From positions 80,023-144,022 of the forward strand of contig CAWDNS010000004.1 of NCBI GenBank assembly GCA_963803775.1: a DNA stretch of 64,000 nt. The letters run 5' to 3'. Each line of letters begins with the position of its first letter. Within the stretch, counting starts at the first letter, position 1. A model generated the notes under the pieces. That model made no database searches, was not told the origin of the DNA, and saw nothing but the letters and a program-made list of their open reading frames with translations. This DNA is from an uncultured Acidobacteriota bacterium. Its GTDB lineage: Bacteria; Acidobacteriota; Terriglobia; Terriglobales; Acidobacteriaceae. This document shows positions 34,054 to 51,891 of this stretch, piece by piece. The position numbers and the translations under genes are program-made.

Positions 34054-34093
34054 TCCCTGCTCTAGCGTCGAACAAAGGCGACGTTAGAGCAGG
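34054..34093. terminator. Long hairpin between convergent genes
   Basis: 16-nt arms CCCTGCTCTAGCGTCG and CGACGTTAGAGCAGGG (one mismatch) with an 8-nt loop, 10 nt beyond the minus-strand stop at 34104. Confidence 0.5.
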
Positions 34094-34103
34094 GCCCGGA
34101 CAA

Positions 34104-34847
34104 CTACGTCACGCGCACATCGAATAATGCCAGCCAATACTGCAATGACTGCATGGCGAAACCACACAGGATGAGTGCGACGCCGAAGGCTCCCATCCGC
34201 CGTTCCGGAAGGTTATCCGCGTAGTATTCGATATAGGGGTTTACGGTTACTCCGACGCCGGTGACCAGGCCGGTGACGAGCCCAACCCGGATGGCAAAAG
34301 ACCAGGCGTGATCAGCTCGGTGTACGAGCGCGCCGCAGATAAGCGCGGTGGCAATGTACCCGAAGGTACGCACGACCGTTCCCCAAAACTGGCGACGTGA
34401 AAGGCGGGTTCGGCGAGAGGCAACATAGTCGAGAGCAGGACGCATCCCGCGGGAATAGGCGAACACCTGACCCAGAGTGATGAGAGCGGCGAATGCGATC
34501 GCGTACTCGACGCCCACACTCCGATACAGTCCGACGCCGAAACCAAGCCCACGCAGTGCGCTGAACAACGCTTCCCAAGGCAAAGAATAGTGATCGAATC
34601 CGCGCGCCGCTCGATTGAGTTCAATCGCTATGGTGATGCCGGTTGCAAGCCCGGAGGCCAGGCCGAAGAAGAGACCAAGGCCGAGACCGTAGCCAATTCC
34701 GAAGACGACCGAGTAGGTTACGGCCCGTGTAAGCAGCCGCAAGGGACCGTGTTGACCACCCAACAGATCGTAGGCAAGGTAAAGGCTGCCGAGCACATCC
34801 AGGCAGGTGCCGGTGATGCTGACAGCTGCGACCGCATGGTGATCCAT
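34104..34847 (-). CDS. Polytopic membrane protein, unknown function (probable last gene of the 37042->34104 operon)
   Basis: Six or more hydrophobic segments with Gly-rich helices (FGIGYGLGLGLFFGLASGLATG). It lies 69 nt downstream of the preceding gene. Confidence 0.6.
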   Translation of the reverse strand: MDHHAVAAVSITGTCLDVLGSLYLAYDLLGGQHGPLRLLTRAVTYSVVFGIGYGLGLGLFFGLASGLATGITIAIELNRAARGFDHYSLPWEALFSALRGLGFGVGLYRSVGVEYAIAFAALITLGQVFAYSRGMRPALDYVASRRTRLSRRQFWGTVVRTFGYIATALICGALVHRADHAWSFAIRVGLVTGLVTGVGVTVNPYIEYYADNLPERRMGAFGVALILCGFAMQSLQYWLALFDVRVT

Positions 34848-34916
34848 TAAATGATTGTAGAGGTAATGAGTTGGGAGTTGGGCGGGTGAGTTAATAGGTA
34901 ATGATATTGAAGCGAC

Positions 34917-35597
34917 TTATACCGCAGCCGCGGCCTGGGTGCCGGCTTTCATTTCTTTGCCAGATTGTCGTTCTACCACACGCAACTCCTTCTCTAGCGA
35001 CGAAAAGCGTTGCAGGATTTCATGCATGCGTAGCGCCATGTTGCGAACAGTTTCGATCTGCGAACGCGCCTCAGCGGAGAGAGAACCAGGCTCAAGCAGG
35101 AGTAACTCGGAGTTTCCCAGCATCGAGGTCAAGGTGTTGTTCAGCGTGTGCTGCATTTCGAGGATGTAGCGGCCGAGAGTGGCTTGGCGTTCCAGCAGCG
35201 TGTTTTGTTGTTCGGCGCGGCGGGCGTGGAATTCGGCAGTTGCCCGATGCAGCACTTCGCCGGCTACGAGCACCAGAGTTTCCAGCCAATTTTCCTGCTG
35301 GCGAACGACGACGACCCCAGGCCAGCGGTCACGAACGGATTGAATAGCTCTAACGTCGTCGGAGACGAAGAGTACGCGTTTGCCGGCGGCATCCATAGCT
35401 TCCATCACAACGGCGAGCGCCTGCGGGCGGATGCGTCCGGCGATGGCTAACTGAAAGTTTTCCGGATCGAAATCGAGGCACACGTCACTACTCATCAGGG
35501 TGAAGGCCGGCATCTTGCGCTCCGATTGCCAGCGACTGGTGATGACCAGGGGAAAATCCGGGTCGTCGGAGATGATGAGTACGGTGGGTTGGTCCAC
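34917..35597 (-). CDS. Pseudo-receiver domain fused to a HisKA (DHp) domain, with no ATPase domain
   Basis: GTG start. LIISDD is present, but QLAIAG sits where the phospho-Asp strand would be. The H-box is LEMQHTLNNTLTSMLGNSELL. The protein ends about 60 aa after the H-box. Confidence 0.65.
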   Translation of the reverse strand: MDQPTVLIISDDPDFPLVITSRWQSERKMPAFTLMSSDVCLDFDPENFQLAIAGRIRPQALAVVMEAMDAAGKRVLFVSDDVRAIQSVRDRWPGVVVVRQQENWLETLVLVAGEVLHRATAEFHARRAEQQNTLLERQATLGRYILEMQHTLNNTLTSMLGNSELLLLEPGSLSAEARSQIETVRNMALRMHEILQRFSSLEKELRVVERQSGKEMKAGTQAAAAV

Positions 35598-35663
35598 GGT
35601 TATTCTCGACGGTCTTCTACTCGACGTCTTTCTGCTCGACGGCTCTCTGCTTGACGACGGGGC

Positions 35664-36698
35664 CTATGATCCGTCGGTATTGTCGCTGCTGCTTTGGTGA
35701 GGATCGGGTTCGCTCCAATCGGCGGTCTGACGGGAGACCTCGAATTCAGGCGCGTCCGAAGCAGCGATTCCGGATTGAGCGCCGGCCGCGGCCGCTTTCG
35801 CTTTCTCTGACGGCTTGTTTCCCTTCTGGTTCTTTTCCAGAGCATGATCGATCACGTTGCGCAGGTCAACCAACATGCGCAGGGGCTGCCCGGAAGAATA
35901 CTCGGCGTGAAACATCACCTTCCACGATTGGCAGATCATGCGCAAGCGTGCGATCGGCTCTTCCGCGGAGAATTGCGCGCGGCGGCAGTCGAGGGTTGCG
36001 ACGCCACTGGCTTCCAATTCGCGCAGGCCGTCGGAAATAGCGTTCAGGTCGCCATGCATCAGGCGGAAGAACACACGCCGCATTAAGAAACTGAAGCGGG
36101 TAAACGAGACCATTGCCGCGGGAGTGTAATAGTTCTCCTGCGAAGAAGTTTTGAGTTTGCGGCTTTTTTCCAGAACCTTGCTGCTGAGCAGTTCGCTCAG
36201 GGTCTTACTGGCATTGGCTTCGGTCATCAGATCGGAGAGTGGACTCAGCCAGTCTGGCAGGGTTAAGTCGGCGGTTCCCAGCACTGGCTCCAGGGTTTGG
36301 GCCACGTACTGGACATCGACATCGGCATCTTCCAGACGCGAGGGCGCGGCCAGCGAAAAATACTGCACCAACAAGAAATCGACTTTGTCGCGGTCAGTGT
36401 CGGAGTGTTGAGGCTTGCGCAAGTGATGTTGCAGGAGATTCCGCAGAGCATCTTCGCCGGCGAGGGCGCTGGTCTGCAAGAACTGACGGAGTTGATAGAC
36501 CTGGATGCGCTGATCCATGTCGAGAAACCATTGCCGCGCCTGTTCCACGGATTCCTGGGGCGGCGTGCTGTTACCGGATTCGAGATCATTGCAAGCGGGG
36601 AGTTCGATGACGAATTCCCGGCCCAACGCCGCATACAAAGGATAGAGCGCAAGCGCGTCTTTCCACTCGGTGGCGAGATCATTCACAGGTGATGTCAT
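35664..36698 (-). CDS. Hypothetical protein (344 aa), no recognisable domain
   Basis: Clean ORF with an ATGA overlap with the upstream gene and an acidic, low-complexity C-terminus. Confidence 0.55.
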   Translation of the reverse strand: MTSPVNDLATEWKDALALYPLYAALGREFVIELPACNDLESGNSTPPQESVEQARQWFLDMDQRIQVYQLRQFLQTSALAGEDALRNLLQHHLRKPQHSDTDRDKVDFLLVQYFSLAAPSRLEDADVDVQYVAQTLEPVLGTADLTLPDWLSPLSDLMTEANASKTLSELLSSKVLEKSRKLKTSSQENYYTPAAMVSFTRFSFLMRRVFFRLMHGDLNAISDGLRELEASGVATLDCRRAQFSAEEPIARLRMICQSWKVMFHAEYSSGQPLRMLVDLRNVIDHALEKNQKGNKPSEKAKAAAAGAQSGIAASDAPEFEVSRQTADWSEPDPHQSSSDNTDGS

Positions 36699-37042
36699 GG
36701 TTTCACGATCCAGTTGGCAACTTCCCGGGTGAAGCGAGCGGCAACCGCCCGGTGTCCTCCGTTACATTGCAGTGCAACCACACAGGCCTCGGTGTCGAGG
36801 GAACCGTCAGAGTTGCGTAAGCGCAGCTTGTCGGCGAACTCGAGCGGCAGAGTCGAAGCAAACAACACTTCCTGCGGCGTACCGAATTCAATGATTGTGC
36901 TTTCGCTGGTGGTGGTGGTGGCATCGCCGAGGCGAGTGAGGCGTACGGGAATCCGCACAGGCGTGGCATTGGGAAAGAACTTGGCCAGCTTGTTGGTGGA
37001 GCTTTCGCGAGTTAGAGCGGCGGCTATGGCTGGTCTGGACAC
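36695..37042 (-). CDS. Hypothetical small protein (115 aa); weak PilZ-like beta-barrel resemblance without RxxxR/DxSxxG
   Basis: GTG start after GGGGGA. VRIPVRLTRLGD...IIEFGTPQEVLFAS...RLRNSDGSL. Confidence 0.45.
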   Translation of the reverse strand: MSRPAIAAALTRESSTNKLAKFFPNATPVRIPVRLTRLGDATTTTSESTIIEFGTPQEVLFASTLPLEFADKLRLRNSDGSLDTEACVVALQCNGGHRAVAARFTREVANWIVKP

Positions 37043-37135
37043 GGTTCCCCCAGAAATGCCAATGCAGGCCGGGGTTCCCGAGTCTGCCGGTTAGCGTGGA
37101 CTCAAGGACCCGGACCGCATCGCAGACAAGGAGAG

Positions 37136-37151
37136 TGCACGAGTGGAGCCA
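37136..37151 (-). promoter_or_regulatory. Candidate sigma-54 (-24/-12) promoter of the 37042->34104 operon
   Basis: The minus strand reads TGGCTC-CACTC-GTGCA, with GG and GC at consensus spacing, about 95 nt upstream of the GTG at 37042. Confidence 0.45.
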
Positions 37152-37245
37152 AAGGGGGGTCTTTGCGGTTTGAGGCTAAGTGTAGAGTTGACAAAGAGAT
37201 GGGATGGAGTTCTATTTCGGGCCGACGGCAGTCTCGGAGAGTTGG

Positions 37246-37270
37246 CGTCTCACATTGATATGACGTCTCA
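37246..37270. promoter_or_regulatory. Candidate enhancer (UAS): two CGTCTCA heptamers 18 bp apart
   Basis: CGTCTCA occurs at 37246-37252 and 37264-37270, about 95-120 bp upstream of the -24 element on the minus strand. The same heptamer pair occurs upstream of the che promoter. Confidence 0.35.
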
Positions 37271-37690
37271 GGGTTGTTTCACTGCGTCCCCCTTGCTCCA
37301 AGCTCTAACTCCGTCAACGTGATCTATGTATCCGTTCACGTAGTCTGCTAAGGGGCCGTGTGGGGGAGCGTGGTAGGTTCCGTTGAAAATCACATATTGA
37401 CCTTTGTGTTTCTCGTATATCTCGAGCTCGGCGTGAAGGTCAATCGAGTTCGAGATAATGAAGTTGCGACCGTCGGATTCAGTCACATAAATTCCGAAGG
37501 ATTGGTCCAGCCCGTTGTTGTCCAGGTATCCAGCAACCCGCACGCGGCGGCCATCGAAGAGCTTAGGGTTCGCTATTAAGCGAATCAAGCTTACGGGGAA
37601 CGGGTGATGGTCATTCCGATCCTGGGCCGAAATCGAACCCGCCAGACTAACTGAACAGATCAAGGTGGCAACGACCATTCTAAAACTCAC
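37268..37690 (-). CDS. Small secreted hypothetical protein
   Basis: GTG 37690 after GAGGGGA gives the signal peptide VSFRMVVATLICSVSLAGSISAQ. The gene looks lower in GC than its neighbours and is the last gene after the NtrC-type regulator. Confidence 0.5.
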   Translation of the reverse strand: MSFRMVVATLICSVSLAGSISAQDRNDHHPFPVSLIRLIANPKLFDGRRVRVAGYLDNNGLDQSFGIYVTESDGRNFIISNSIDLHAELEIYEKHKGQYVIFNGTYHAPPHGPLADYVNGYIDHVDGVRAWSKGDAVKQP

Positions 37691-37730
37691 GAAATATCTC
37701 CCCTCAGAAGCACTCGCCATTTGTGGTGGT

Positions 37731-39140
37731 CTACTGCAACACCGAGCTACCCGTCGGCAGTTCGTGTCTGCCACCGATGTTGTAGCGCTTGAGCTTGCGG
37801 TAGAGAGTGGCGCGGCTTATGCCGAGCATCTTGCCGGCCATGACCTTGTCGCCTTTCACCTGTTCGAATACGCGTTCGATGGTGGCGCGTTCGATGTCTT
37901 CGAGATCGTTGGAGGATAATCCAGCGGTGTTGGGTATCCCGCTGGTTTCCTGCATGGGAGAAGCCGAAGCGATGGTCGGCGGGAGGTCGCCGATATCGAT
38001 GGTCCGCGAATCCCCCAGGGCCACCGCGCGTTCGACGCAGTTTTCCAGCTCGCGAACGTTTCCCGGCCAGTCATATTGCAGCAGGCATTTCATGGCCGAA
38101 TTGGTGACCTGCATGGCACTGCCGCCGGCGTAGCGATCCAGAAACCAATGCACCAGCATGGGAATATCGGAGCGGCGTTCGCGCAGCGACGGCAGATGCA
38201 CGGTGACAACGTTCAGCCGGAAATAGAGATCCTTCCGGAAAGTGCCATTGCGGTATTCCGCTTCCAGGTCGCGGTTGGTGGCGGCGATCACGCGAACGTC
38301 GACTTTGATTCGCTGATTGCTGCCGACGGGACGAACCTCTTTCTCCTGCAAGACTCGCAGCAGCTTGGCCTGCATCTCAAGCGGCAGTTCGCCGATCTCG
38401 TCGAGAAAAATCGTTCCTCCGCTCGCTGACTGGAAAAGGCCAGTCTTTGATCTCAGAGCGCCGGTGAATGCTCCTTTTTCGTAGCCAAACAATTCGCTTT
38501 CGATGAGGGTCGGAACCAAAGATCCGCAATCCACGGCGACGAACGGCCGATTGGCGAAGGAGCCGCGGAAATGAATCGCGCGCGCCACTAATTCTTTGCC
38601 GGTGCCGCTTTCGCCGGCGATCAACACCGGAGTGCGAGTGTCTTTCAGCCGCGAGACCACGCGCAAGACGTCTTGAATCTTACTCGAAGAGCCGACGATG
38701 CCGTGGAGGTCGGTTTCCGTATCCACGCGCTCGCGCAGAAACTGATTTTCTTCCACCAGGCGTACTTTCTCGGCCATGCGGCGAAGGAAAAGGCGCAGTT
38801 CTTCCAGCGGCGAAAAGGGTTTCCCGATGTAATCGTAAGCGCCGAGTTTCATGGCCTGGACGGCGGTCTCGACCGATCCATGGCCAGTCATCACCGCGAC
38901 CTCGGCGCGCGGAAGCAGTTTTTTCACTCTTTCCAGAAACTCGATGCCAGACATATTTGGCATGACCATATCGGTCAGCACCATGTGGGCGGGTTGCTCT
39001 TCGAGCAGAGCGAGCGCGGTCTCACCACTGTTGGCCTCCAGGCAGGTGAACCCGAGGGCTTCGCCGACGGTCATGCAAAGTTTGCGGATGCTCTGTTCGT
39101 CATCCACGATCAAGAGCCGGATTCGCAGGTCTTCGCTCAC
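37731..39140 (-). CDS. Sigma-54-dependent response regulator (NtrC family): REC + AAA+ activator + Fis-type HTH
   Basis: [10 protein letters not shown] and [11 protein letters not shown] mark the REC domain. The AAA+ domain has GESGTGKE, the GAFTGA loop (EKGAFTGA) and ELFGYE. The C-terminal HTH is [17 protein letters not shown]. The GTG 39140 start overlaps the upstream stop (GTGA). Confidence 0.9.
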
Positions 39141-39538
39141 GGCGCCTTCCCCATTGTCTTTTCCACGACTGAAATGAATTGCTGGACACGAAACGGTTTC
39201 TCCACGCAGGGTGCGCCTGTCTTGCGGAGTGTGGCTACCGTGTCTTCGTTGGCAATATCTCCGGTGATGAAAACAATCCGGTGGGCGAGTTCGGGACAAT
39301 TTCCGGCTAACCAGGCATGGACATCGGCTCCGTCCACTCCGCCAGGCGTGCGCATGTCGGAAACCACGCCGAGGAATTTCTCCGAGGCCAGCAAGCGCAA
39401 GCCTTCGGCGCCGGACTCGGTGCAGACCACGCTGTAGCCGCTACGCTCCAACGCGGCGCGGACGTAGGCCATCACCGCAGGCTCATCTTCAATGAGCAAC
39501 ACAGGCAAAAAATCTGGCTTCATTGCAGGCATACTCAT
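39137..39538 (-). CDS. Single-domain (CheY-like) response regulator
   Basis: VLLIEDEP, VVSDMRTPGG and VEKPF are present. It has an ATGA overlap with the kinase gene. Confidence 0.85.
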   Translation of the reverse strand: MSMPAMKPDFLPVLLIEDEPAVMAYVRAALERSGYSVVCTESGAEGLRLLASEKFLGVVSDMRTPGGVDGADVHAWLAGNCPELAHRIVFITGDIANEDTVATLRKTGAPCVEKPFRVQQFISVVEKTMGKAP

Positions 39539-42500
39539 GACCGGGCCACCCCCGAAATCACGCCAATCGCGAGGGCTGGCAAACGCACCGTGAACGTCGC
39601 ACCCTCACCATCGGGATTGTTTTGACAAGCAATTTCGCCTCCGTGTTCATGCACGATGCCATAGCAGATGCTCAGGCCGAGGCCCGTGCCTTTGCCCACG
39701 TCTTTCGTGGTGAAGAAGGGATCAAAGATGCGTTCGGGGGATGAGATGCCCTGGCCGTTGTCACGGAAGGTGGCTTCCACCATGTTGCCGCAATTGGTGG
39801 TTGCGATCTCGACCCGTGGCGGACGCCCGGTGTCGCGCATGGCGTCGTAAGCATTGTTAAGAATGTTCAGAAACACCTGCTGGAGCTGATGGGAATCGCC
39901 GATTACCTGTTGAAGATTCTCGTCGAGATGCTCGATGACCTCCGCACCGCGGCTGCGGAAGTCGTAGGCGCGCAACTGCACGGTGCGATGGAGAATGGCA
40001 TTGAGCTGGACCGGGTTCTTTTGTGGCGGCATTTGGCGCGCAAAGCTCAGCAGGTTCTGCACAATCTGTTTGGTGCGTTGCGCCTCCTGCAGGATCACCC
40101 GCAGGTCTTTGCGCGCGGTTTCGGGCATTTCCGGATTTTCCAGCAGTAGGTCGGCGAAGCCGAGAATCGCAGTCAGGGGATTGTTGACTTCGTGGGCGAC
40201 GCCTGAAACTAACTGGCCCACCGCTGCCATTTTTTCCGCATGAATCAGCTTGGCCTGGAGAGTGGCTGCGTCGGTGATGTCACTCATGACTACCACAATG
40301 CTGGTGACGGTTTCACGCTCATCACGCATGGGACTGAGATTCACTGAAAATCGTCCCACGTCCTGGCCGCGGACGATCTGCAGTTCAAGATTGTCCACCT
40401 GCGACCCGATTCGGGTGGTGGCAAAAGCCTCAGCCAGCGCCTGCCGCCTTTGCGGTGCGATTAAGTCTTCCAGTGGCCGCCCCAGAAGCTGGTGCTGCTG
40501 GTATCCCATTTCGTACCAACGCCGGTTGGCATAGCTGATGAGACCGCTGGTATCCACCACCAGGATCAGGCTCTGGGTGTGGTTCAGTATCTTTCCGGAA
40601 AAGTCGCGTTCACGATGCAGTTCCGATTGAAAGGTCTTGAGGCCGCTGATATCAAGCATGACGCCGCGATATTGCACGGTGCGGCGTTGGGCGTCGCGGA
40701 CTGCGAAGGCATTCACCAGAACATGCACCGGTGCTCCGTCCGGGCGGCGCAGGGTTTGCTCCTGGTTGCGAGCTGCGCCGTGCTGCTGCATCTGGCGCGT
40801 GAACTCTTCGTACTGTTCGGCTGAGAAACACACCTGGGAGCGAATGTCCGCTTGCAAAAGCTCTTCGCGGCTGGTGTACCCGAGCATTCGTACCAGCGCG
40901 TCATTGACTTCAACAAATCGTCCTTCGGGAGTAGCGAAGAACACGCCTTCCTGAATGTTATCGAACAATTCGCGGTAACGACGCTCGGCTTCGCGGCGGT
41001 CGGTGATGTCCTTGAGGACGTGAATGATTTGCAGGCCTTCGCTATTGGCGCTGTGGACCCGGGAAGTGGAGACAATGTAAGTGCGGTCGAGCACCGGGAG
41101 CACGTATTCGTCCGGGCCTGCGTCGTTCATGGAAGAACGGCAGAAGGGGCAGGAATGCGCCGGGGTTTCATCGTCGGTGACCATCAACCCACACATGCTG
41201 ACGCCGATCAGTTCCTGGGGCTGAACTCCGATGAAGTCGGCCAGCGACCGGTTCACGCGCAAGACTTTGTCCGATTGGTCGTGGGCCACGATGAAGTCGG
41301 TGATGGCATCGAAGATTTCGATCCAATGGCGGTTGGCCTGGTGCATCCGAGTAAACAGCCGGGCATTTTCCAGGGCAATGGATGCGTGCGCCGCAACCGC
41401 TTGCAGCAATTGCTGGTCGCTGCGCTCCAAAGGCTTTTGCCTGTTGGCCAGGCACAGCACTCCAACCAGTTCTCCGGAAGACCCCTGGAGGCGGATGAGG
41501 CTGCAATCGTTCCAGCCAAGCGCGGAACTGGTTTCGCTGCCGAGAAGGTCAGCAGCGCTGCCACACACAACTGCCTCAGGGCTGATGGCCAGAGTGTGCG
41601 CGAGGCCGCCTTCCAAGCGATGCAGGAGAGAATCCTGGCGGTTGTTGGAGACAGACGTTCCATGCAGCGCCACGATTTCCAATCCCTGATTTTGCTTCAC
41701 TGCCAAGGCGGCCATGGGAGCTTCCATCAAATCAGCGGCACGGGTGACGAAGCTTCTGGCAAACTCGGGAAGCTGTAGCTGAGAGTTCAACTCAAGCGCC
41801 AGCCCCATCAGAGACTCGGCGCGACGGCGGTGCTGCTCCGACAAGTGAAGATTGCGAGTGGACTCCAGCGCGACCGCGACTTGTGCCGCCAGAACCCTGG
41901 CGGAACGAATATCCGACTGCGAAATTCCGGTGCGATCGAGGCGATCGAGCACTCCGAACATTCCCAGCACTTCGCCGTGTGTGTCAAGTAAAGGCACGGT
42001 CAAGACTTGTTTGACATTGAACTTGGCTAAGGCCTCACGATTGGCCCCTGGAACCTGAGTCGCGTCGTCAGACCAGAAGACCTCGCGATTAAACAGAGCG
42101 CGGGTAGTGGGCCCTTCCGGCAGGACCATATCCAGGCGTTCAGTTCTTCCGCTCTCTGCTCCCCAGTGAACCCGAAATACGCCGTCTTCGAGCAGACCAA
42201 GGAATGCGCGGTCGAAGCCGAGAAGACCCGCGGCGCGTAATGCGAAACGTTGCATGAACTGGTCAAGATCGCCGATCGATCCCAACTCCGACGAAATGTC
42301 GAGCAGTTGTTGCAACTCCTGGGCCTGCGCCCGGGCGGTTCCGCAGAGTTCCGCGTTGGCGATGGCGACCGCACCAAAGCCCGCAACCGCCGCCAGTAAA
42401 GACTTTTCTTCCAGGCGGAATGGACCTTGCTGTCGTGGATAAACGAGAACAGCACCCTGAGCGCGGGAAGTACGAATGGGAGCCGCCAGCAGCATACCGG

Positions 42501-43389: not shown

Positions 43390-43511
43390 CTACAAGTAAT
43401 TGAATATAATGGAAAAGTAGTCCACAATCTCAATTTGAGTCAAGATTATTAGGGATGGGAGTGCCCAATTGTGAACCTCGACTGGAAAAGTCCCTGCTTC
43501 ACCCATATTCT

Positions 43512-43549
43512 TCGTCTCACTGTGAGAGTGAGCGCCTCGGCTGAGACGA
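43512..43549. promoter_or_regulatory. Candidate enhancer (UAS): inverted repeat TCGTCTCA...TGAGACGA
   Basis: 8-bp arms at 43512-43519 and 43542-43549, about 110-145 bp upstream of the -24 element at 43657. An inner hairpin CTCACT-GTGAG-AGTGAG is also present. Confidence 0.4.
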
Positions 43550-43593
43550 TAATCTCTTGAAGGCGAACCCGTCGGCTGCTAATCTAATCCTCC

Positions 43594-43606
43594 TAAGTAA
43601 TTGATA
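43594..43606. promoter_or_regulatory. IHF-consensus match between the UAS and the promoter
   Basis: TAAGTAATTGATA fits YAANNNNTTGATW (the reverse of WATCAANNNNTTR) in an AT-rich stretch about 55 bp upstream of -24. Confidence 0.35.
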
Positions 43607-43656
43607 TTTATTGCTATTAGGCCGCTATCCTCTTGTAACCCCCTGAGCTGCAAGGT

Positions 43657-43672
43657 TGGCAGAGACATTGCA
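43657..43672 (+). promoter_or_regulatory. Sigma-54 (-24/-12) promoter of the TonB_C/chemosensory operon
   Basis: TGGCAG-AGACA-TTGCA differs from the consensus TGGCAC-N5-TTGCW at a single position. Confidence 0.6.
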
Positions 43673-43709
43673 CCTGAAGTTACGACCAGATGTGTCTGGC
43701 GGAGAGGCC

Positions 43710-44075
43710 GTGCGCTTCCAAGAGCCTAAAAGGAGACTGATTACAGTCCTGGCATTGTGGGCGTTCTTTGTCGCGGCAGGAGCAATTATCCCCTGGCGCG
43801 CTTTCGCTCAAGCGGAAGTAGCACGGAAAGTGAAAACCAGGGTCTCTCCGAGCTACCCCGACCTGGTGCGCCGTTTGAGCATCCGCGGCACGGTGAAGGT
43901 GGTTGTAGTGGTTTCCCCCAACGGTGACCCGAAAGACGTCAGGGTGGTGGACGGAAATCCAGTTCTGGTGAATGCAGCACTGGACGCGGTGAAGAAATGG
44001 AAGTTTGAACCGGCGCAGGACGAGAGCACTGTGACGCTGGAATTCGATTTCCAGCCTAAACGTCCGGCGGAGTGA
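43710..44075 (+). CDS. Small periplasmic TonB C-terminal-domain protein
   Basis: GTG 43710 after GGAG gives the signal-like MRFQEPKRRLITVLALWAFFVAAGAIIPWRAFAQA. TonB_C is SPSYPDLVRRLSIRGTVKVVVVVSPNGDPKDVRVVDGNPVLVNAALDAVKKWKFEP. The ORF-track TTG 43656 would sit on the promoter. Confidence 0.7.
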   Translation: MRFQEPKRRLITVLALWAFFVAAGAIIPWRAFAQAEVARKVKTRVSPSYPDLVRRLSIRGTVKVVVVVSPNGDPKDVRVVDGNPVLVNAALDAVKKWKFEPAQDESTVTLEFDFQPKRPAE

Positions 44076-44125
44076 GCCACACCCCACGGCACGAGGCGAA
44101 CCTGCAATTTAGGGGAGGAATAGCG

Positions 44126-46114
44126 ATGACGATTGGCAAGAAACTTTATGTGAATTTTGGCGCCGTCCTTGCGATGGTGGTGGTGCTGTTCCTGGTCAAC
44201 CTCGTCGCGGTGCAGCGGGAACACAGCGCCAAAGCTGCGGCCTCGCAAGCGTTACAGATGGCGCAGACCAACGACAAGATCCGTTTCCAGATGATGCAGA
44301 ACCGGCTGTATCTAAGCAACTACCTGCTCAGCGGAGACACCCGTGAAGTCGAGAGATTGAACGACGGGATGCGTGTCCTGCAAGACTCCCTGCAAACCGC
44401 CCAGAACCTGGCCAATTCGGAGCAGCAGAAAGCCGCACTGTCGAAGGTGCAAACCAGCGAGCAGAACTGGGGGCACGACTTTGCGGCGCCGTTGATCGAG
44501 AAGCGCAAAGATGTGGACAGCGGCAACGCCACGGTAGCTGAGTTGCAGATTTTCTATTTGCAGAAAGACGCGTCGTCCTGGGTCAAGGCTGCCACCGATT
44601 CTCTGGAAGTAGCTGACCTGGAAAATACCAAGGTTCTGGAACTACGGCGAAAGTCCGATGAAACCGCGGCCACGGCTACTATCGTGATCGCGCTGTTCAG
44701 CACGCTTCTGGCGCTGGCCCTGGGCATTGCCATCGCCTACTCCACTTCCAAGTCGATCACGGAACCGCTAGGAAACCTGATGACGGTGGCGCGGCAGATC
44801 GGCAATGCCGGCGACTTGGATCATGAAATCGATCTCACCCGCAAAGATGAAATCGGTGAGTTGTCGCGAAGTTTCGCCACCATGGTCACTTACCTGAAAG
44901 AGATGGCAACAGTCTCCGAGGCAATTGCCGGCGGGAACCTGAATGTTGAAGTGCAGCCGCGATCGAAGGGTGACACATTAGGCAAAGCCTTCGTGAGCAT
45001 GATCGAGGGACTCAGAAGCCTGGTTCGCAATGTGCGCGATGCAGCCTCGCAAGTGGCCAGCGCCTCCAATCAAGTGGCAGGAGCCTCCGACGAATCCGCC
45101 AAGATCAGCCTGCAAACATCGTCCGCCATCGACGAAGTCACCAGCACCATGCACGAGATGAGCGTCAATGTGCAGAACATGGTGAAGAGCACGCAGACTC
45201 AGGCTTCGAGCGTCAGCGAAACCTCAGCTTCCATCGACCAAATGGTGGCTTCCATCCAGCGCGTGGCCGACACCGCGAAGGTATTGCTGGACATCTCCAA
45301 CCGCTCCCGCGAGGAAGTGCATAGCGGTATCTCCACCATGGACAAGGCTACCGATGGATTGAACCGGATCAATACCACCATTCAGTCTTCCGGCGAGATC
45401 ATCGATGTGCTGGGTCAAAGAGCGGACGATATTGGAAAGATCATCGAGGTTATCGATGACTTGGCTGAACAAACCAACCTGCTGGCGCTCAACGCTGCCA
45501 TCGAAGCCGCGCGCGCGGGCGAGCACGGGTTGGGCTTTGCCGTGGTCGCCGATGAAGTTCGCAAGCTGGCGGAAAAGTCCGCCCAATCCACCAAGGAAAT
45601 TTCCGACCTCATTCAGAGCATTCAGAAAGAGGCGCGTAAAGCCGTTGAGAACATGAACCGAAGCACCGGGATTGTTAACGAAGGGCTGGGTCTGGGACAG
45701 GAACTCAATACCGCGCTGCGTAAGATTTCCAACGTAGTCACCGAAGTGTACAAGTTCGCGCAGGAAATTGGCGCGGCCACCAACGAACAGTCGCACGGTT
45801 CGGCGCAGATCGCCCGCGCCACCACCCGCTTGAACGAGATCACCCACGAGATCAATTCTGCCGTGGAAGAACAGGCTTCGGGAGCGCACGCCGTGGTTAA
45901 AGCCATGGAGCGGATGCGGGAACTGGTGCAGCAAACCACTTCCGGCTCGACCGAACTGGCGGCTTCGGCGGAACAGATGTCGAAGATGTCCCGCGACCTG
46001 CTCGACTCCATGGATCGATTTGCGCTGGAGCAATTAGAGCGTGTCACGGGCCGACGCGTGGATAGGTCCACGTTGGCCAACGCCCGCCAGGCAGCTGCCG
46101 GGGCGCAGGGTTAA
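44126..46114 (+). CDS. Methyl-accepting chemotaxis protein (periplasmic 4-helix/CHASE3-like sensor, HAMP, MA domain)
   Basis: ATG 44126 follows AGGGGAGG. There are two TM segments, a HAMP domain (EIGELSRSFATMV) and the conserved signalling hairpin EQTNLLALNAAIEAARAGEHGLGFAVVADEVRKLAE. Confidence 0.9.
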   Translation: MTIGKKLYVNFGAVLAMVVVLFLVNLVAVQREHSAKAAASQALQMAQTNDKIRFQMMQNRLYLSNYLLSGDTREVERLNDGMRVLQDSLQTAQNLANSEQQKAALSKVQTSEQNWGHDFAAPLIEKRKDVDSGNATVAELQIFYLQKDASSWVKAATDSLEVADLENTKVLELRRKSDETAATATIVIALFSTLLALALGIAIAYSTSKSITEPLGNLMTVARQIGNAGDLDHEIDLTRKDEIGELSRSFATMVTYLKEMATVSEAIAGGNLNVEVQPRSKGDTLGKAFVSMIEGLRSLVRNVRDAASQVASASNQVAGASDESAKISLQTSSAIDEVTSTMHEMSVNVQNMVKSTQTQASSVSETSASIDQMVASIQRVADTAKVLLDISNRSREEVHSGISTMDKATDGLNRINTTIQSSGEIIDVLGQRADDIGKIIEVIDDLAEQTNLLALNAAIEAARAGEHGLGFAVVADEVRKLAEKSAQSTKEISDLIQSIQKEARKAVENMNRSTGIVNEGLGLGQELNTALRKISNVVTEVYKFAQEIGAATNEQSHGSAQIARATTRLNEITHEINSAVEEQASGAHAVVKAMERMRELVQQTTSGSTELAASAEQMSKMSRDLLDSMDRFALEQLERVTGRRVDRSTLANARQAAAGAQG

Positions 46115-46128
46115 ACGGAACAGATGCG

Positions 46129-46674
46129 ATGAACCGCGAATTGCACATCGTCGGCTTCCAGGTGGGACGGGAGACTTATGGAGCGCCCATCACTTCGCTG
46201 CATGAAATTGTGCGCGTGCCGGAAATCACGGCCGTACCGGATGCGCCTGCTTACATGGAAGGCGTGATCAACCTGCGCGGCAAGATCGTATCCGTGCAGG
46301 ATCTGCGCAAGCGGCTAGGGGAAACCGATGTTGTGCCCAACCGCCGCAACCGGATTCTGGTACTCGAGCATCACGGACGCCTTTCCGGGTTGATTGTCGA
46401 TTCCGCATCGGAAGTGCTCAAGATTCCGGCCGGGGACGTGGAACCGTCTCCCACAGAGTTCCTGGAAGGCGGCCTGAAGTGCGTGACCGGACTGGGGAAA
46501 CATAAGGGGCGACTGATCATTCTGCTCGACATGACCAAGTTGCTGGATTTCAGCACCCAAGGTGGAAATGGCGCTCCCGGCGAGGCTAAAGCCGAGGTCA
46601 AGACTGAAAGCAAGATAGAAGCCCGGACAAAAACCAGCACAACCGAGGCGCGGGGCGCCGCGGCGTCCAAATAG
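46129..46674 (+). CDS. cheW: Chemotaxis coupling protein CheW
   Basis: YGAPITSLHEIVRVPEITAVPDAPAYMEGVINLRGKIV is the CheW-domain signature. Confidence 0.9.
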   Translation: MNRELHIVGFQVGRETYGAPITSLHEIVRVPEITAVPDAPAYMEGVINLRGKIVSVQDLRKRLGETDVVPNRRNRILVLEHHGRLSGLIVDSASEVLKIPAGDVEPSPTEFLEGGLKCVTGLGKHKGRLIILLDMTKLLDFSTQGGNGAPGEAKAEVKTESKIEARTKTSTTEARGAAASK

Positions 46675-46700
46675 CGTGGAGGAAAAGCACCAATCAATTC

Positions 46701-47606
46701 ATGGCTAGCCCCACTGTGCAGATGCAACTTACGGAACCCGAACTGAAGCTGCTGCAGACGCTCGTCTATCAGGAGTGCGGCATGCATTTTGATTCACGCC
46801 GCACCCATTTCCTGCAAGACCGATTGCAGCGCCGTCTCAAAGAATGCCATCTGGATTCGTTCTACAGCTACTACAGTCTTCTGATCAGCCGCGAGGGCAA
46901 GGAAGAACTCACCAAGCTGCTGGAAAACCTCACCGTCAACGAGACCAGCTTCTTTCGTAACAAGGCGCAGTTGGATTTGTTTCACAAGCACGTTCTCGAT
47001 CAGATGTTGCGCCGCAAGCAGGAGCGGCATGACTTCTCGCTGCGCCTGTGGAGCGCGGGATGTTCCACCGGACAGGAACCTTACACCATGGCCATGCTGG
47101 TGGCGGATGCAATCTCCTACCATGTTTTGCGCAATCCTTCAGGGAAGGAGCTGCCGGTGCCCAAACCTCTGGTCCCGCCTCCCTGGAAAGTGGAGATTTT
47201 GGCCAGCGACATCAGCTACTCCGTGTTGCGAGCGGGGCAGGAAGGCACCTACGGCGAACATCAGATGTCTTCGGTGGATTACAGCTACCGGCTACGCCAC
47301 TTCGACAAAGTCGGCGATCGCTACGCGGTGAAAAAGTCGCTGAAAGAGATGGTTCATTTCGACTTCCATAACTTAAAGACTGAATATCTGCCGCAGCGCT
47401 ACGACATTATTTTCTGCCGCAACGTGATGATGTATTTCGATGAAGCCGAACAAAAGCGGCTGATCGAAAAGTTCTGCCGCTGCCTGAATGCCGGTGGCTA
47501 TCTGTTTGTGGGGCACGCCGAGAGCCTGTTGGGTCTTACCGACAAGTTCAACATGGTTTATCGCGAAACCGGAACTGCGTACCAGAAGCTCGAGGTGGCC
47601 TTATGA
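46701..47606 (+). CDS. cheR: Chemotaxis protein methyltransferase CheR
   Basis: The N-terminal helical domain (TSFFRN) and the SAM-binding region (LRLWSAGCSTGQEPY, IFCRNVMMYFD) are present. Confidence 0.9.
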   Translation: MASPTVQMQLTEPELKLLQTLVYQECGMHFDSRRTHFLQDRLQRRLKECHLDSFYSYYSLLISREGKEELTKLLENLTVNETSFFRNKAQLDLFHKHVLDQMLRRKQERHDFSLRLWSAGCSTGQEPYTMAMLVADAISYHVLRNPSGKELPVPKPLVPPPWKVEILASDISYSVLRAGQEGTYGEHQMSSVDYSYRLRHFDKVGDRYAVKKSLKEMVHFDFHNLKTEYLPQRYDIIFCRNVMMYFDEAEQKRLIEKFCRCLNAGGYLFVGHAESLLGLTDKFNMVYRETGTAYQKLEVAL

Positions 47607-49798
47607 GCCGGGTCCCGGACGAGCGCGGCGCGGAACTGCGGGCGCTGTTCTTCGAAAGCTCCCAGGAATTGCTGCAAGCGCTGAACGAAGATGCGTTGAA
47701 ACTGGAGAAGCAGCCCGGTGACGGCGAAACCGTGCGCAGCATCCGGCGCATTGTGCATACGCTAAAGGGCGACGCGGCTGCGACTGGGTTTCAGGAGTTG
47801 AGCGAGGTGGCGCACAAGCTGGAGGATGCCCTCGCAGGGGAAACTACGGCAGCGCAAGATTCACTGGCCGAAATTGCCTTCCGAGCGGCCGACTTGTTCA
47901 GCGAGATGTTGAGCGCGTATCGCAACGAGACTAAGCTTCCCTCGGCTGCGCCACTACAGAAAATGATTCGCGAACTGGCCCGGGCACCCAAGCCACGAAG
48001 TTCTCGCGCCAAGAAAGACAAGCCGTCGGTCTCTGCACAAGCGGTGTGGACTGAATATGAAAAACTTGCTATGCAGCGCGCCGCTAACCAGGGCAAACTT
48101 CTGTATCACATTCGCGTACAGGTTGATCCTGCATGCGCCATGCCCATTGCGGCGCGGCAGTTAGTACTCAAGGCGCTGGCTGATGTCGGAGAAGTGCTGG
48201 GGTCGCGGCCAGATGCCGGCTCGATAGAAGCAGTCAAGCAGATCCAGGTGCTACTGGCGAGCGACAAGGCTGCCCAGCTTCTGTCTGCAAAGTGCCAAAT
48301 TCCTACCATCGTTTCAAAAGCGCAGGTTGAAGCCATTGAACTCCCCGCCCAAAAGACGACACCATCGGAAGCCGTCCTTTCCGGAACTTCAAGCGGAGGG
48401 ACACCGGAATCCGTGACTGAAGCGCAGGTGCATTCGGAAGCCGAGGGAACCGCGACTGCTTCTTCTCCTGACGATGAGATCGCCGGCCGAACGGCTTCCG
48501 CGCACGTGGACAACATCCTGCGGGTGGACGCCGAGCGCATCGACAACCTGCTCAATCTGGTGGGCGAACTGATCATCGGCAAGTCCATGTTGCAGCGGAC
48601 GCTGAATGAATTTGCCCGTCAGCATCCCAAGGATTCGACGCGCAGCCGTTTCGCGGATGCCATGGCGTTTCAGTCCCGGGTTCTGACCGATCTGCAACGT
48701 TCGGTGATGAAAGTCCGCATGGTTCCGGTAGAGCAACTGTTCCGGCGATTTCCCCGCATGGTGCGTGATGTCGCCAAACAGTGTGGCAAGGACGTGGAAC
48801 TGAAGCTAAGCGGACAAGACACAGACCTCGACAAGGGACTGCTCGATGGCATCGCCGAGCCGCTGACCCACCTGGTGAGGAATGCTGTCAGCCATGGCAT
48901 TGAGAGTGCGGAGGAACGCGCTCGCGTGGGCAAGCCTGCACAAGGAACTGTCCATCTGCGCGCTTATCACCAGGGCAATCAGGTGATGGTTGAGATCAGT
49001 GACGATGGCCGCGGCGTCGATGTACAAAAGGTGAAGGCGCGCGCTCTACAGCAGGGGTTGTGGAACGAGCAGGAGTCCGGCGCGCTCGACGAAACCACCG
49101 CGCTCAATCTCATATTCCGGCCCGGATTCAGCACCGCCGACCAAATCACAGAAGTCTCCGGGCGCGGGGTTGGGCTGGACGTGGTGCAGAGCATTCTGCA
49201 ACGGCTCAAGGGCACCGTCCAGATCGAAACCCGGCACGGACAAGGCACTATCTTCCGATTGTGTCTTCCGCTTACGCTGGCCATTATCAAAGCTCTGTTG
49301 TTCCGCGTGGAAGAACGTCTCTATGCGATTCCTTTGAACGCTGTGGCCGAGATCGCGCGAGTGCAGGAATCGGACTTGCATCAGGTGGATAATCGCGAGG
49401 TCTTGCAGTTGCGCAATCGCGCGCTGACCGTGATCCGTCTGGGAAACCGCACCACGGAGATATCCGAACATCACCCATCCGATCGTCGGCACGGCAAGAT
49501 TTTCGTGCTGGTCACCAACCTGGGGGAACGCAAGCTGGGGCTATTGGTAAACGAACTGGAGGGTGAAGAGGAACTGGTAATCAAGGCGCTGGACGATCAC
49601 ACCGTGGAGACCGATCTGGTCAGTGGCGCGTCCATCCTGGGCAATGGGCGCGTGGTATTGATCTTGAATCTGGCTGCGATCGTCGAGCGTTTCACCAAGT
49701 CGCGTCCTGGGACCGGGACTGGCCCGGCGATGGGACTGTTGCTGTCTCATGCCGAACGTGCGAAAGCTGCCCAAGCGAGTGCGGGAGGCCAGACATGA
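47603..49798 (+). CDS. cheA: Chemotaxis histidine kinase CheA
   Basis: The Hpt His lies in IVHTLKGDAAATGF. The kinase core has HLVRNAVSHGIE and GRGVGLDVV. A C-terminal CheW-like domain is present, and the gene has an ATGA overlap with cheR. Confidence 0.92.
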   Translation: MSRVPDERGAELRALFFESSQELLQALNEDALKLEKQPGDGETVRSIRRIVHTLKGDAAATGFQELSEVAHKLEDALAGETTAAQDSLAEIAFRAADLFSEMLSAYRNETKLPSAAPLQKMIRELARAPKPRSSRAKKDKPSVSAQAVWTEYEKLAMQRAANQGKLLYHIRVQVDPACAMPIAARQLVLKALADVGEVLGSRPDAGSIEAVKQIQVLLASDKAAQLLSAKCQIPTIVSKAQVEAIELPAQKTTPSEAVLSGTSSGGTPESVTEAQVHSEAEGTATASSPDDEIAGRTASAHVDNILRVDAERIDNLLNLVGELIIGKSMLQRTLNEFARQHPKDSTRSRFADAMAFQSRVLTDLQRSVMKVRMVPVEQLFRRFPRMVRDVAKQCGKDVELKLSGQDTDLDKGLLDGIAEPLTHLVRNAVSHGIESAEERARVGKPAQGTVHLRAYHQGNQVMVEISDDGRGVDVQKVKARALQQGLWNEQESGALDETTALNLIFRPGFSTADQITEVSGRGVGLDVVQSILQRLKGTVQIETRHGQGTIFRLCLPLTLAIIKALLFRVEERLYAIPLNAVAEIARVQESDLHQVDNREVLQLRNRALTVIRLGNRTTEISEHHPSDRRHGKIFVLVTNLGERKLGLLVNELEGEEELVIKALDDHTVETDLVSGASILGNGRVVLILNLAAIVERFTKSRPGTGTGPAMGLLLSHAERAKAAQASAGGQT

Positions 49799-50902
49799 GC
49801 GCACCCGTCCGCGTGCTTGTGGTCGATGATTCGGCTCTGATGCGCAAGCTGATTCCGCAGATTCTCGCCACTGACAGTTCGATTCAGGTGGTTGGCACAG
49901 CCATGGACGGTAACTTCGGTCTGAAGAAGATCGAAGAATTGAAGCCGCAGGTAATCACCCTCGATCTGGAAATGCCGGGCATGGGCGGTTTGGACATGCT
50001 AAAAGAAATCACCCGCAAACACCGCTTGCCGGTGATCGTGGTCAGCTCTCACAGCACCGAGGGAGCGTCGGTGACGCTCAAAGCGCTGTCCATGGGAGCT
50101 TTCGATTTTGTGGCGAAACCCAGCGACGTTTCCGCACGCATGCCGGAAATCGCCGACGAGCTTATCTCCAAGATTAAAGCTGCCGCACAGAGCCGGGGGC
50201 TAAGGGTGTCTCCGCCATCCCTGTCCGATCCCAGGCCGGTGGAAAAAGCGGCGCCCAACACCAAGCAACGTCCTACCCGAGTTGTCGCCATCGGCGTGTC
50301 GACCGGTGGTCCTCAGGCTTTGCAGTATCTGCTGCCGCAATTGCCCAAAGATTTCCCGGGCACGATTCTCATAGTGCAGCACATGCCGGAGGGTTTCACG
50401 GAAATGTTTTCCCGGCGGCTGGATGAAATCTGCTCCATCAAGGTGAAGGAAGCCCAGTCGGGCGATCTGCTTGTTGGCGGGCCGCGCCCTGGTATGTCCG
50501 GGCAGCCGCCATTTAAAAGTTAAGCGCATGCCGCTGGGCGATGTAGTCGTCCTGAGCGATGAGCCGCGAGTGAACGGCCATCGTCCGTCGGTGGATGTGC
50601 TATTCCGCAGTGTTGCCGAAGAATTTGGCAATAATAGTCTTGGTGTACTCATGACCGGCATGGGAGAAGACGGTGCGCAGGGCCTTGGCCAGTTGAAGGC
50701 CGCCGGAGCAATGACCATCGCGCAAAACGAGGAGTCCTGCGTGGTCTACGGAATGCCGAAGGCGGCAATAGAACGCGGCTATGCTGTCCGCGTGGTCAGC
50801 CTGGAAGCACTTGGCAATACCTTACAGGCGCAGTGCATGCCGGAGCGTAAGAACACCGAACCTGCGGACGGCGGACGGGCCGCTGGAGCGGGCAAGAGTT
50901 GA
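49795..50902 (+). pseudogene. cheB: Chemotaxis methylesterase CheB, interrupted by a +1 frameshift near 50468-50474
   Basis: The REC domain (VLVVDDSALMRK, DLEMPGMGG) and the esterase Ser/His (GVSTGGPQAL, IVQHMP) read in one frame to 50523. The rest (AGRALVCPGSRHLKV, GMGEDG, VVYGMPKAA) reads in the next frame, 50471-50902. Confidence 0.8.
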
Positions 50903-50956
50903 GTTGTAAGTTCCGGCGCGAAAGCTCTGGATCAATCAGCAGATGGAGGTTGTTAT

Positions 50957-51397
50957 ATGGAGCAATTTGTTCCAGTAAAACGCAGTAAGGACGGTCAGCC
51001 AGTCCGCTATCTGGTAGTGGATGATTCCGTCTTCGCCCGCAAGAACCTGGCCCGCATGATCGAGACTTTCGGGGGCCAGCTTTGCGGCGAAGCCGGGGAC
51101 GGTATGACCGCCATCACCGAATACGACCGAACCAATCCGGATATTGTGCTGATGGACATCACCATGCCGCAGATGGAAGGGATCGAGGCTGCCGAGAAAA
51201 TCGTGCAGAAACATCCCGATGCGCGCGTGGTCATGGTGTCGTCGGTGGGGTATCAGGAAAACATTGTGGCGGCCCTGCAGCGTGGCGCGCGCCATTTCGT
51301 GCAGAAGCCCGTCAAGCCCGAGGTTCTGTACGAAGTCATCAAGTACGTAATGGGAGATGACGGCACCGTGGCCAGCGCCGCGGGCGCGGGAGACTAA
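50957..51397 (+). CDS. cheY: CheY-like single-domain response regulator
   Basis: YLVVDDSVFARK, VLMDITMPQMEG, VVMVSS and VQKPV. Confidence 0.85.
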   Translation: MEQFVPVKRSKDGQPVRYLVVDDSVFARKNLARMIETFGGQLCGEAGDGMTAITEYDRTNPDIVLMDITMPQMEGIEAAEKIVQKHPDARVVMVSSVGYQENIVAALQRGARHFVQKPVKPEVLYEVIKYVMGDDGTVASAAGAGD

Positions 51398-51399
51398 CC

Positions 51400-51891
51400 A
51401 TGAAGATGGAATTGATCCAGCCTTTCATCAATGCGGCGGACGCCGTGCTGGCGCAGGGCTTGCAATGTTCCATGTCCATCGGCAACCTCAGCATGGAAGC
51501 AGAGGCTTACCGGCGGAAAGGAATCGCTGCACTGATCTGGGTTACCGGAGATATTGAAGGCAGAATCATTCTGGATCTTGACCCGGAGACCGCTGTGCGC
51601 GTGGCCAGCAAGTTCGCAGGCACAGTATTGCCGGAAACCGATGCATTAGTGCGGGAAACCGTTTTCGAACTTGCCAATCAGGTGATCGGCAACGCAGTGA
51701 CCGTGCTCAATAATGAGGGTTTTCACTTCCGCGTCCATCCCCCTGTGCTCCATACCTCGGAACATGGTCCCAAGAGCAGCGAGGACACCGAAGCGTTGGT
51801 GATTTGCTTTGAAACGGGCATCGGCGATGTCTTCATGAACATTGCGCTGCGTTATGGCCAGTCTCATCACTCGGCGGCGGTAGGACAGTAG
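51400..51891 (+). CDS. CheC/CheX-family CheY-P phosphatase-like protein
   Basis: The FELANQVIGNA motif (E-x2-N) and its position right after cheY are typical of CheX/CheC. Confidence 0.65.
   Translation: MKMELIQPFINAADAVLAQGLQCSMSIGNLSMEAEAYRRKGIAALIWVTGDIEGRIILDLDPETAVRVASKFAGTVLPETDALVRETVFELANQVIGNAVTVLNNEGFHFRVHPPVLHTSEHGPKSSEDTEALVICFETGIGDVFMNIALRYGQSHHSAAVGQ

Follow-up and report, generated by a model that had tools for sequence, protein, structure and literature searches.

The window, a stretch of 64,000 nt from an uncultured soil acidobacterium of the order Terriglobales (Acidobacteriota; GenBank assembly GCA_963803775.1, contig CAWDNS010000004.1, positions 80,023 to 144,022), probably hosts a local two-component regulon of the NtrC family, in which a single enhancer-binding protein (EBP) drives, from sigma-54 promoters, the two operons located on either side of its own. 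One is a chemosensory (che) operon. The other carries three genes, collectively referred to as the triad, which encode a PilZ-like protein of 115 aa, an all-alpha protein of 344 aa, and a 226-aa protein made up by a pseudo-receiver (pseudo-REC) and a DHp domain. That one EBP may drive both flanking operons had been proposed in a preliminary description of the window, in which all coordinates are correct, and the proposal is supported by comparative genomics. The data that we regard as decisive are comparative, the conservation of the predicted regulatory elements being confirmed across about 100 related genomes and metagenome contigs. The main components of the putative regulon are the following.

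39535-43389, minus strand: cytoplasmic histidine kinase of 1284 aa with multiple GAF and PAS domains, probable start at ATG 43371
39137-39538, minus strand: single-domain receiver (Pfam Response_reg), acceptor Asp present
37731-39140, minus strand: NtrC-family EBP, REC - AAA+ - HTH_8 by Pfam
43514-43528: enhancer palindrome of the che operon, GTCTCA-CTG-TGAGAG, 143 bp before the -24 element
43542-43547, plus strand: che-side extra half-site TGAGAC, invariant in the alignment of orthologs
43657-43672, plus strand: sigma-54 -24/-12 promoter of the che operon, TGGCAG-N5-TTGCA (TGGCAGAGACATTGCA)
43710-44075, plus strand: TonB_C-domain protein with N-terminal membrane anchor, heading the che operon (Pfam TonB_C, E = 2.5e-17)
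44072-51891, plus strand: MCP, CheW, CheR, CheA, CheB, CheY and CheX, from Pfam matches and synteny with the genome loci L001-L006
37247-37270, minus strand: tripartite triad enhancer TGAGAC-GTC-ATATCA-ATG-TGAGAC
37151-37136, minus strand: sigma-54 -24/-12 promoter of the triad operon, TGGCTC-N5-GTGCA (TGGCTCCACTCGTGCA)

The che-side promoter resides in non-coding DNA, in the correct orientation, and ends 38 nt before the GTG at 43710. In both promoters the GG and GC dinucleotides are exactly 10 nt apart, the consensus spacing that had been claimed for them. The che region was compared with six syntenic loci (L001-L006) found in metagenome-assembled genomes (MAGs) of Acidobacteriota by a genome scan with the EBP. 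These show 70–87% identity and share the gene order of the window, the che operon being followed by the divergent kinase-REC-EBP operon, and this by the triad of 115-aa, 344-aa and HisKA-like genes. The che promoter element was found in all six genome orthologs, and in 7/7 further metagenome loci. Mean column identity of the intergenic alignment is 49%, and only four islands are conserved in it: ATCTCAATTTGAGTCAA, GTCTCA-N3-TGAGA, TGAGAC, and the -24/-12 element. The palindrome at 43514-43528 differs from GTCTCANNNTGAGAC at one position, and is set at about -144 to -167 from the GG of the -24 element; the extra half-site is found at about -116, with a range of -113 to -127 over all orthologs. 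The whole arrangement is kept in 14/14 loci (the window, 6 genome and 7 metagenome loci).

The triad-side promoter is similarly non-coding and correctly oriented, and ends 94 nt before the GTG at 37042; the consensus of its family is CTTTGGC-N7-GTGCA. The three parts of the enhancer are located at -120, -111 and -102 from the GG of the -24 element, and the conserved islands read TGAGAC-N3-6-GTnTCA-N3-TGAGAC and CTTTGG-N8-(G/T)TGCA. The promoter recurs at the 6 genome loci, and at three loci (L081-L083) retrieved via homologs of the 344-aa protein. Both enhancer and promoter are retained in L081, where two inserted genes keep the EBP gene apart from the triad, as in L082 and L083, where the EBP gene is not adjacent.

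A larger set was obtained by a metagenome scan with a pattern derived from the transcribed leader of the triad mRNA only, which returned 120 loci, 96 of them with a homolog of the 115-aa gene downstream. Counts of the triad promoter and its half-sites refer to 86 loci featuring at least 200 nt of upstream sequence. TTGG-N9-(G/T)GC is found at a fixed position in 85 of the 86, GG and GC being invariant (85/85), and exact TGAGAY sequences lie about 100–120 nt upstream in 85/85, as two copies in 67 loci and as one copy in 18. The modal spacing of the paired half-sites is 18 nt. Conservation of promoters and motifs at orthologous loci, one of the checks suggested at the outset, is borne out (14/14 loci on the che side, 85/86 on the triad side).

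The preliminary description had singled out a heptamer, CGTCTCA, occurring as a pair about 95–150 bp upstream of each -24 element. The copies are present at 37246-37252, 37264-37270, 43513-43519 (+) and 43542-43548 (-), at a measured distance of 101–144 bp, but the real unit is larger. Both intergenic regions share islands made up by a palindrome and a half-site, and the heptamers are therefore fragments of the palindrome. The full motif is a 15-bp palindrome, GTnTCA-N3-TGAGAC, accompanied by an extra TGAGAC half-site either 9 or about 20–30 nt away. Sites are dyad-symmetric, and several are found per promoter, from -88 to -167, plus a distal one at about -208 to -231. The distal site falls before the kinase operon.

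43427-43441: third palindrome, ATCTCA-ATT-TGAGTC (ATCTCAATTTGAGTC), about 40–55 bp upstream of the kinase start

This palindrome is nearly invariant and is the best-conserved intergenic block, TCTCA and TTTGAGTCAA being identical in 7 sequences. It is found also in metagenome loci, lies at about -220 from the GG of the che -24 element, and overlaps a weak sigma-70-like -35 hexamer, TTGAGA. Its role may be autoregulatory, or it may serve as a distal enhancer. The DNA between the kinase start and the palindrome contains a further block, CACAAGTAATTGAATATAATGG (43372-43426), which is conserved in the closer relatives L001, L002 and L006, not in L003-L005. The block may be the core promoter or the 5' untranslated region of the kinase operon; a consistent -10/-35 pair was not found in 43372-43426. 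At 2 mismatches, the remaining match to the palindrome in the window is GTTTCATAAAGAGAC (63076-63090).

In a more distant clade, represented by L003-L005, a third enhancer, TGAGAA-N3-ATCTCA-N3-TGAGAC, precedes a promoter element, TGGC-N8-TGCA, by about 131 nt, at the following coordinates.

L003, 14301-14448: third target
L004, 14237-14384: third target
L005, 13446-13592: third target

The third enhancer overlaps the 3' end of the HisKA-like gene. Together with its promoter, it stands at the head of a second che-like operon (REC, CheW, MCP, CheR and a CheA-REC hybrid), which the window does not contain. The regulon of these bacteria is therefore centered on chemosensory pathways.

A number of observations weigh against the existence of the regulon, and the first set comes from the window taken alone. 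CGTCTCA is not enriched, being found in 12 copies vs. 9.5 expected, close to chance as already noted in the preliminary description, and loose -24/-12 patterns are 7 vs. 6.2 expected. When scored with a sigma-54 position weight matrix (PWM), a home-made approximation of published frequencies, the che promoter ranks first (15.8 bits) and the triad promoter joint third (12.5 bits), but for random sequences matched in length and composition the maximum averages 15.5 bits; by this measure, also suggested as a check, the promoters are no better than random sequence. Pairs of TGAGAC within 40 nt are 2 vs. 0.48 expected (P(>=2) = 0.06), and palindromes with at most 2 mismatches are 4 vs. 2.1 expected. 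Other PWM matches scoring at least 12.5 bits, at 51448-51465 (+, inside cheX) and at 27991-27974 (-, inside an open reading frame), have no TGAGAC nearby and are probably due to chance. Figures this weak mean that the claim cannot rest on the window alone, and they speak for a reading in which the promoter and motif matches are casual likenesses to short consensus sequences, devoid of any regulatory role.

Comparative data contradict the latter reading. Promoters and motif clusters stand out as conserved islands in diverged intergenic DNA (mean column identity 48–49%), their position and sequence being kept in about 100 loci. Further evidence came from a composite search, in which palindromes with at most 2 mismatches had to be followed by a loose -24/-12 element within 60–260 nt. 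Matches were 155 in 1.05 Mb of DNA, which comprised the window, its genome orthologs and the metagenome loci found with the leader pattern; a control of 1.15 Mb, surrounding EBP genes that are not orthologous, gave 2. Nearly all of the 155 belong to the che-, triad- and third-target classes. Chance likeness is therefore refuted for practical purposes, and we assign it a negligible probability.

The second set of contrary observations concerns the elements themselves. The usual T at -14 of the triad promoter is replaced by G in 82/85 loci. The RpoN box was not found in six-frame translations of the window and of the fetched loci; literature data indicate that RpoN is carried by 3/3 Acidobacteria genomes surveyed (PMC3372290, Table 1). 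The match to the IHF consensus reported between che enhancer and promoter is indeed there, on the minus strand, but as a strict match it is conserved in position only in L001, the closest relative.

43594-43606, minus strand: IHF-consensus match TATCAATTACTTA, between che enhancer and promoter

Strict matches of this kind are 3 in the 64-kb window. On the triad side they are found in 12/92 spacers, grouped some 35 nt before the GG, vs. about 0.4 expected at the window rate, and an IHF-type bend, not universal, is plausible. Upstream of the kinase operon, a sigma-70 scan returned weak, non-conserved candidates only. Autoregulation through the third palindrome stays a guess, because a convincing promoter of the kinase operon was not found. 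Lastly, of the 33 metagenome loci with at least 3 kb of upstream sequence, 20 have an EBP ortholog immediately before the triad; in the other 13 the two do not adjoin.

These 13 loci, as L082 and L083, keep the triad enhancer with no EBP gene next to it, a pattern expected if the promoters were sigma-54 dependent but TGAGAC were bound by a different EBP or by an accessory factor, the adjacent EBP controlling other genes. EBP paralogs are indeed very numerous in these phyla, 599 relatives having been confirmed in the scan. Yet in 14/14 loci the motif occurs on either side of the EBP operon as well as in front of it, and loci with non-orthologous EBP genes lack it. Palindromes of the form 6 + N3 + 6 are the type of site recognized by the Fis-type helix-turn-helix (HTH) domains of NtrC-family proteins, and the motif described here suits such a domain. 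In loci with no EBP gene next to the triad, that gene may simply reside in another part of the genome. Control by another regulator is accordingly deemed quite unlikely, and the adjacent EBP is retained as the candidate activator of both operons.

The EBP has, as judged from its domains, all features needed for contact with sigma-54. Pfam matches are to Response_reg (E = 2.1e-25), Sigma54_activat (E = 1.2e-69) and HTH_8 (E = 1.7e-10). The receiver features the acidic pocket (DD at residues 13-14) and the acceptor D57 within MVLTDMVMP; the AAA+ domain Walker A and B motifs, the GAFTGA loop, kept in every ortholog, and the arginine finger (RKDLYFRL). Having a receiver, a sigma-54 interaction AAA+ domain and a Fis-type HTH, the protein falls in group I of the NtrC family. 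The best NCBIfam scores are to AtoC (449 bits, cut-off 714) and NtrC (425 bits, cut-off 559); FlgR and FlbD are also matched (about 302 bits, cut-offs 750). All scores are under the cut-offs of the named equivalogs, and the EBP is therefore not an ortholog of any named EBP. The kinase matches GAF and PAS, in three stretches each, HisKA and HATPase_c. Kinase and receiver genes, as receiver and EBP genes, overlap by 4 nt and are translationally coupled.

In the mechanism proposed, the GAF/PAS kinase would sense an intracellular signal and phosphorylate the EBP at D57, the single-domain receiver perhaps acting as a relay or a phosphate sink. The phosphorylated EBP would bind GTnTCA-N3-TGAGAC palindromes and TGAGAC half-sites 100–165 bp upstream of the promoters, form an AAA+ ring, contact the sigma-54 RNA polymerase by looping over an AT-rich or IHF-like spacer, and open the promoter through its GAFTGA loop. 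Targets would be the TonB_C-MCP-CheW-CheR-CheA-CheB-CheY-CheX operon, the triad operon with its structured 5' leader, and, in the relatives represented by L003-L005, the second che operon. The third palindrome might add autoregulation, at the level of a guess. What the sequences show directly is the DNA elements, with their conserved geometry, and the domains that make up the proteins. From gene order and motif distribution we infer that the EBP binds the motif; a positive or negative sign for autoregulation, a function for the receiver, and a feedback-phosphatase role for the DHp protein are inferences too.

The direction of signal flow might be different. The Che3 pathway of Myxococcus xanthus has as its output the NtrC homolog CrdA, which is phosphorylated by the kinase CrdS and, as CrdA~P, dephosphorylated by CheA3 (PMC3147164). 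By analogy, the EBP could be mainly the output of the che pathway, CheA modulating its phosphorylation; gene adjacency would then mirror a signal passing from Che to the EBP, instead of che transcription driven by the EBP. The layout is alike, an EBP and a kinase gene residing beside a che operon which starts with a gene for an envelope protein. However, the operon found here encodes a CheY and a CheX phosphatase of its own, and its CheA has a P2 domain, whereas Che3 lacks a CheY (PMC3147164). Moreover, the conserved enhancer and -24/-12 element before the che operon directly indicate control of che transcription. With CheY and CheX encoded in the operon itself, a Che3-like signal flow is not required. 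We consider it unlikely, and it would in any case be compatible with activation of the che and triad operons by the EBP.

The products of the triad operon had been described as uncharacterized. In Pfam and NCBIfam they match nothing but, weakly, HisKA; a predicted PilZ fold and a pseudo-receiver/DHp protein can be recognized among them.

36695-37042, minus strand: 115-aa protein, PilZ-like beta-barrel (AlphaFold2 pLDDT 82)
35664-36698, minus strand: 344-aa all-alpha protein (AlphaFold2 pLDDT 83)
34917-35597, minus strand: 226-aa protein, pseudo-receiver plus DHp domain, HisKA-like (Pfam HisKA E = 1.3e-5, a weak match)

In Foldseek searches, the top matches of the 115-aa model are MotI/DgrA, the PilZ domain of BcsA, Alg44, PA0012 and YcgR (TM 0.46–0.57, probability 1.00, E about 1e-3), most of them being PilZ domains. 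RxxxR (R30-R34), located before the barrel, is invariant or nearly so in the family; the (D/N)xSxxG motif is not recognizable in the sequence, and Pfam PilZ is unmatched even at E <= 10. The protein has 2800 homologs, and neither a functional name nor a Pfam domain is associated with any of the best 120 listed. The 344-aa protein has over 4500 homologs, and among the best 120 listed Pfam domains are absent and 'hypothetical protein' is the only name. Its model found no fold match in the PDB with Foldseek (best E 0.66), its sequence no match in Pfam or NCBIfam, and the predicted structure may represent a new fold or family. The named sources of the homologs of both proteins, in the best 120 listed for each, are Terriglobales/Acidobacteriia.

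In the 226-aa protein the acceptor Asp is absent, the site reading LAIAG, as is the HATPase_c domain. The H-box reads RH(T/S/A)LNN, with the His conserved in 55/57 sequences, an acidic residue at H+1 in 0/57 and Asn at H+4 in 57/57. According to the rule of Willett and Kirby, kinase activity needs an acidic H+1 residue, and phosphatase activity Thr or Asn at H+4 (PMC3510030). By this rule, phosphatase or phosphotransfer activity is therefore possible, kinase activity is not, and the protein could be a phosphatase or phosphotransfer protein. As a DHp-only protein it might exert feedback, with the EBP, the orphan receiver or CheY as possible targets.

Downstream of the promoter and ahead of the start codon, the triad mRNA is predicted to carry a conserved hairpin.

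37063-37121, minus strand: conserved 5' leader hairpin with invariant apical GCUAACCGGC (RNAalifold on 7 and 83 sequences)

The hairpin is found also in L001, L002, L006, L081-L083 and about 80 metagenome loci. In the set of 83 sequences, 97.8% of cells are paired, vs. 35–50% in controls in which the 3' partner was slid, and compensatory changes are seen in 7 pairs, one pair being CG in 36 sequences and UA in 36. Because most of the 5' arm was prescribed by the search pattern, covariation in that arm is not observable, and evidence from covariation is partial. No credible Rfam match, leader hairpin included, was found in the 33–53 kb part of the window. The hairpin may represent a new cis-regulatory RNA, or serve as a 5' stabilizer.

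Additional genes reside in the same region.

37268-37681, minus strand: small open reading frame whose product has a predicted signal peptide; it separates the EBP gene from the triad-side enhancer
34104-34847, minus strand: 247-aa polytopic membrane protein, final gene of the strand, outside the conserved core
44072-46114, plus strand: MCP
50957-51397, plus strand: CheY
51400-51891, plus strand: CheX

The preliminary description placed an EBP operon between the two promoters. Pfam matches support its kinase-REC-EBP composition, but the small reading frame at 37268-37681 lies, in addition, before the operon starting at 37042. The frame has no homolog in L001-L006 or in the other loci, nor a family match in Pfam or NCBIfam, and looks like a lineage-specific insertion. 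Its stop codon is overlapped by the upstream heptamer at 37264-37270, which includes one TGAGAC half-site. The 247-aa membrane protein is similarly without homologs at the orthologous loci, and without matches in Pfam and NCBIfam.

The TonB_C gene starts at GTG 43710 and not at TTG 43656, because the promoter overlaps 43656; a ribosome-binding site (GGAGAGG) and the GTG both lie 3' of the promoter. The gene is missing in L006. The domains of CheA are Hpt-P2-dimerization-ATPase-CheW. The cheB gene (49795-50902, +) is broken into two frames near 50471-50523, positions 1-64 of Pfam CheB_methylest being matched by the first frame and positions 65-174 by the second. Relative to L003-L005, cheB in the window has one additional base, near CTGCTTGTTGG, and the frameshift is either a sequencing error or the mark of a real pseudogene. 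The kinase ortholog of L001 (5763-9603) shows up in tblastn as five segments whose coordinates abut or overlap. The MAG may contain frameshift or assembly errors at this point, which advises caution on the frameshift in cheB.

The regulon resembles NtrB-NtrC/glnAp2, as well as AtoSC and ZraSR, in having an EBP with REC, AAA+ (GAFTGA) and Fis-type HTH domains, and the kinase gene in the same operon. As in NtrB-NtrC, several dyad sites are found about 100–165 bp upstream of GG-N10-GC, and a site is possibly found at the operon of the regulator itself. It differs from NtrB-NtrC in the kinase, a 1284-aa cytoplasmic protein with multiple GAF and PAS domains, in the extra single-domain receiver encoded by the operon, and in the targets, which are chemosensory and signaling rather than metabolic genes. 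To our knowledge, GTCTCA-N3-TGAGAC matches no known EBP site, binding-site databases not having been searched.

As in the Che3-CrdA/CrdS system of M. xanthus, an NtrC-like EBP and a kinase are tied to a chemosensory operon (PMC3147164), and an envelope protein goes with the che pathway in both, CrdB (OmpA domain) in Che3 and the TonB_C protein here. Unlike in Che3, the evidence, sequence-based, points to an EBP activating che transcription, and the pathway has its own CheY and CheX; CrdA targets are stated as not yet known (PMC3147164).

Sigma-54 promoters and NtrC-family EBPs drive motility and chemosensory genes also in the FleQ/FleR, FlrA/FlrC, FlgR and FlbD systems. In contrast to FlgR/FlbD-type systems, neither the fetched loci nor the portion of the window that was annotated (about 31.9–54.3 kb) revealed flagellar genes, and the putative regulon includes the PilZ-like/all-alpha/DHp triad. 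The predicted barrel and the RxxxR of the 115-aa protein recall PilZ receptors of cyclic di-GMP (MotI/DgrA, YcgR, Alg44, the C-terminal domain of BcsA), from which the protein differs in the lack of a recognizable (D/N)xSxxG and of a Pfam PilZ match. Literature searches returned nothing specific on NtrC regulons in Acidobacteriota or on sigma-54 control of che operons.

The mechanism is a textbook one, and the regulon is probably real but fairly ordinary; its value lies in annotation and in the design of experiments, not in a new principle. The prediction is nonetheless precise and testable, as it involves one EBP, a 15-bp palindrome, and two or three sigma-54 promoters. Few regulons have been defined in Acidobacteriota, a phylum abundant in soil, and no comparable set of regulator, motif and targets was found in the literature. 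Regulon, motif, widespread triad and leader RNA are useful, testable additions for this understudied phylum, and the very common, unnamed triad module, with its structured leader RNA, acquires a first functional context. In its most extended form, the hypothesis is tentative. In Terriglobales and related Acidobacteriota, the EBP might switch on whole chemosensory pathways (one operon here, two in the sister clade), together with a three-protein signaling module composed of a degenerate PilZ fold, an all-alpha protein of new fold, and a DHp-only protein, with the phosphatase but not the kinase residue and no ATPase domain, which would feed back on EBP, orphan receiver or CheY, the module mRNA featuring a new cis-regulatory leader as a second, post-transcriptional input. 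For these bacteria, the regulon points to a decision, taken at the level of transcription, on whether a chemosensory pathway gets built.

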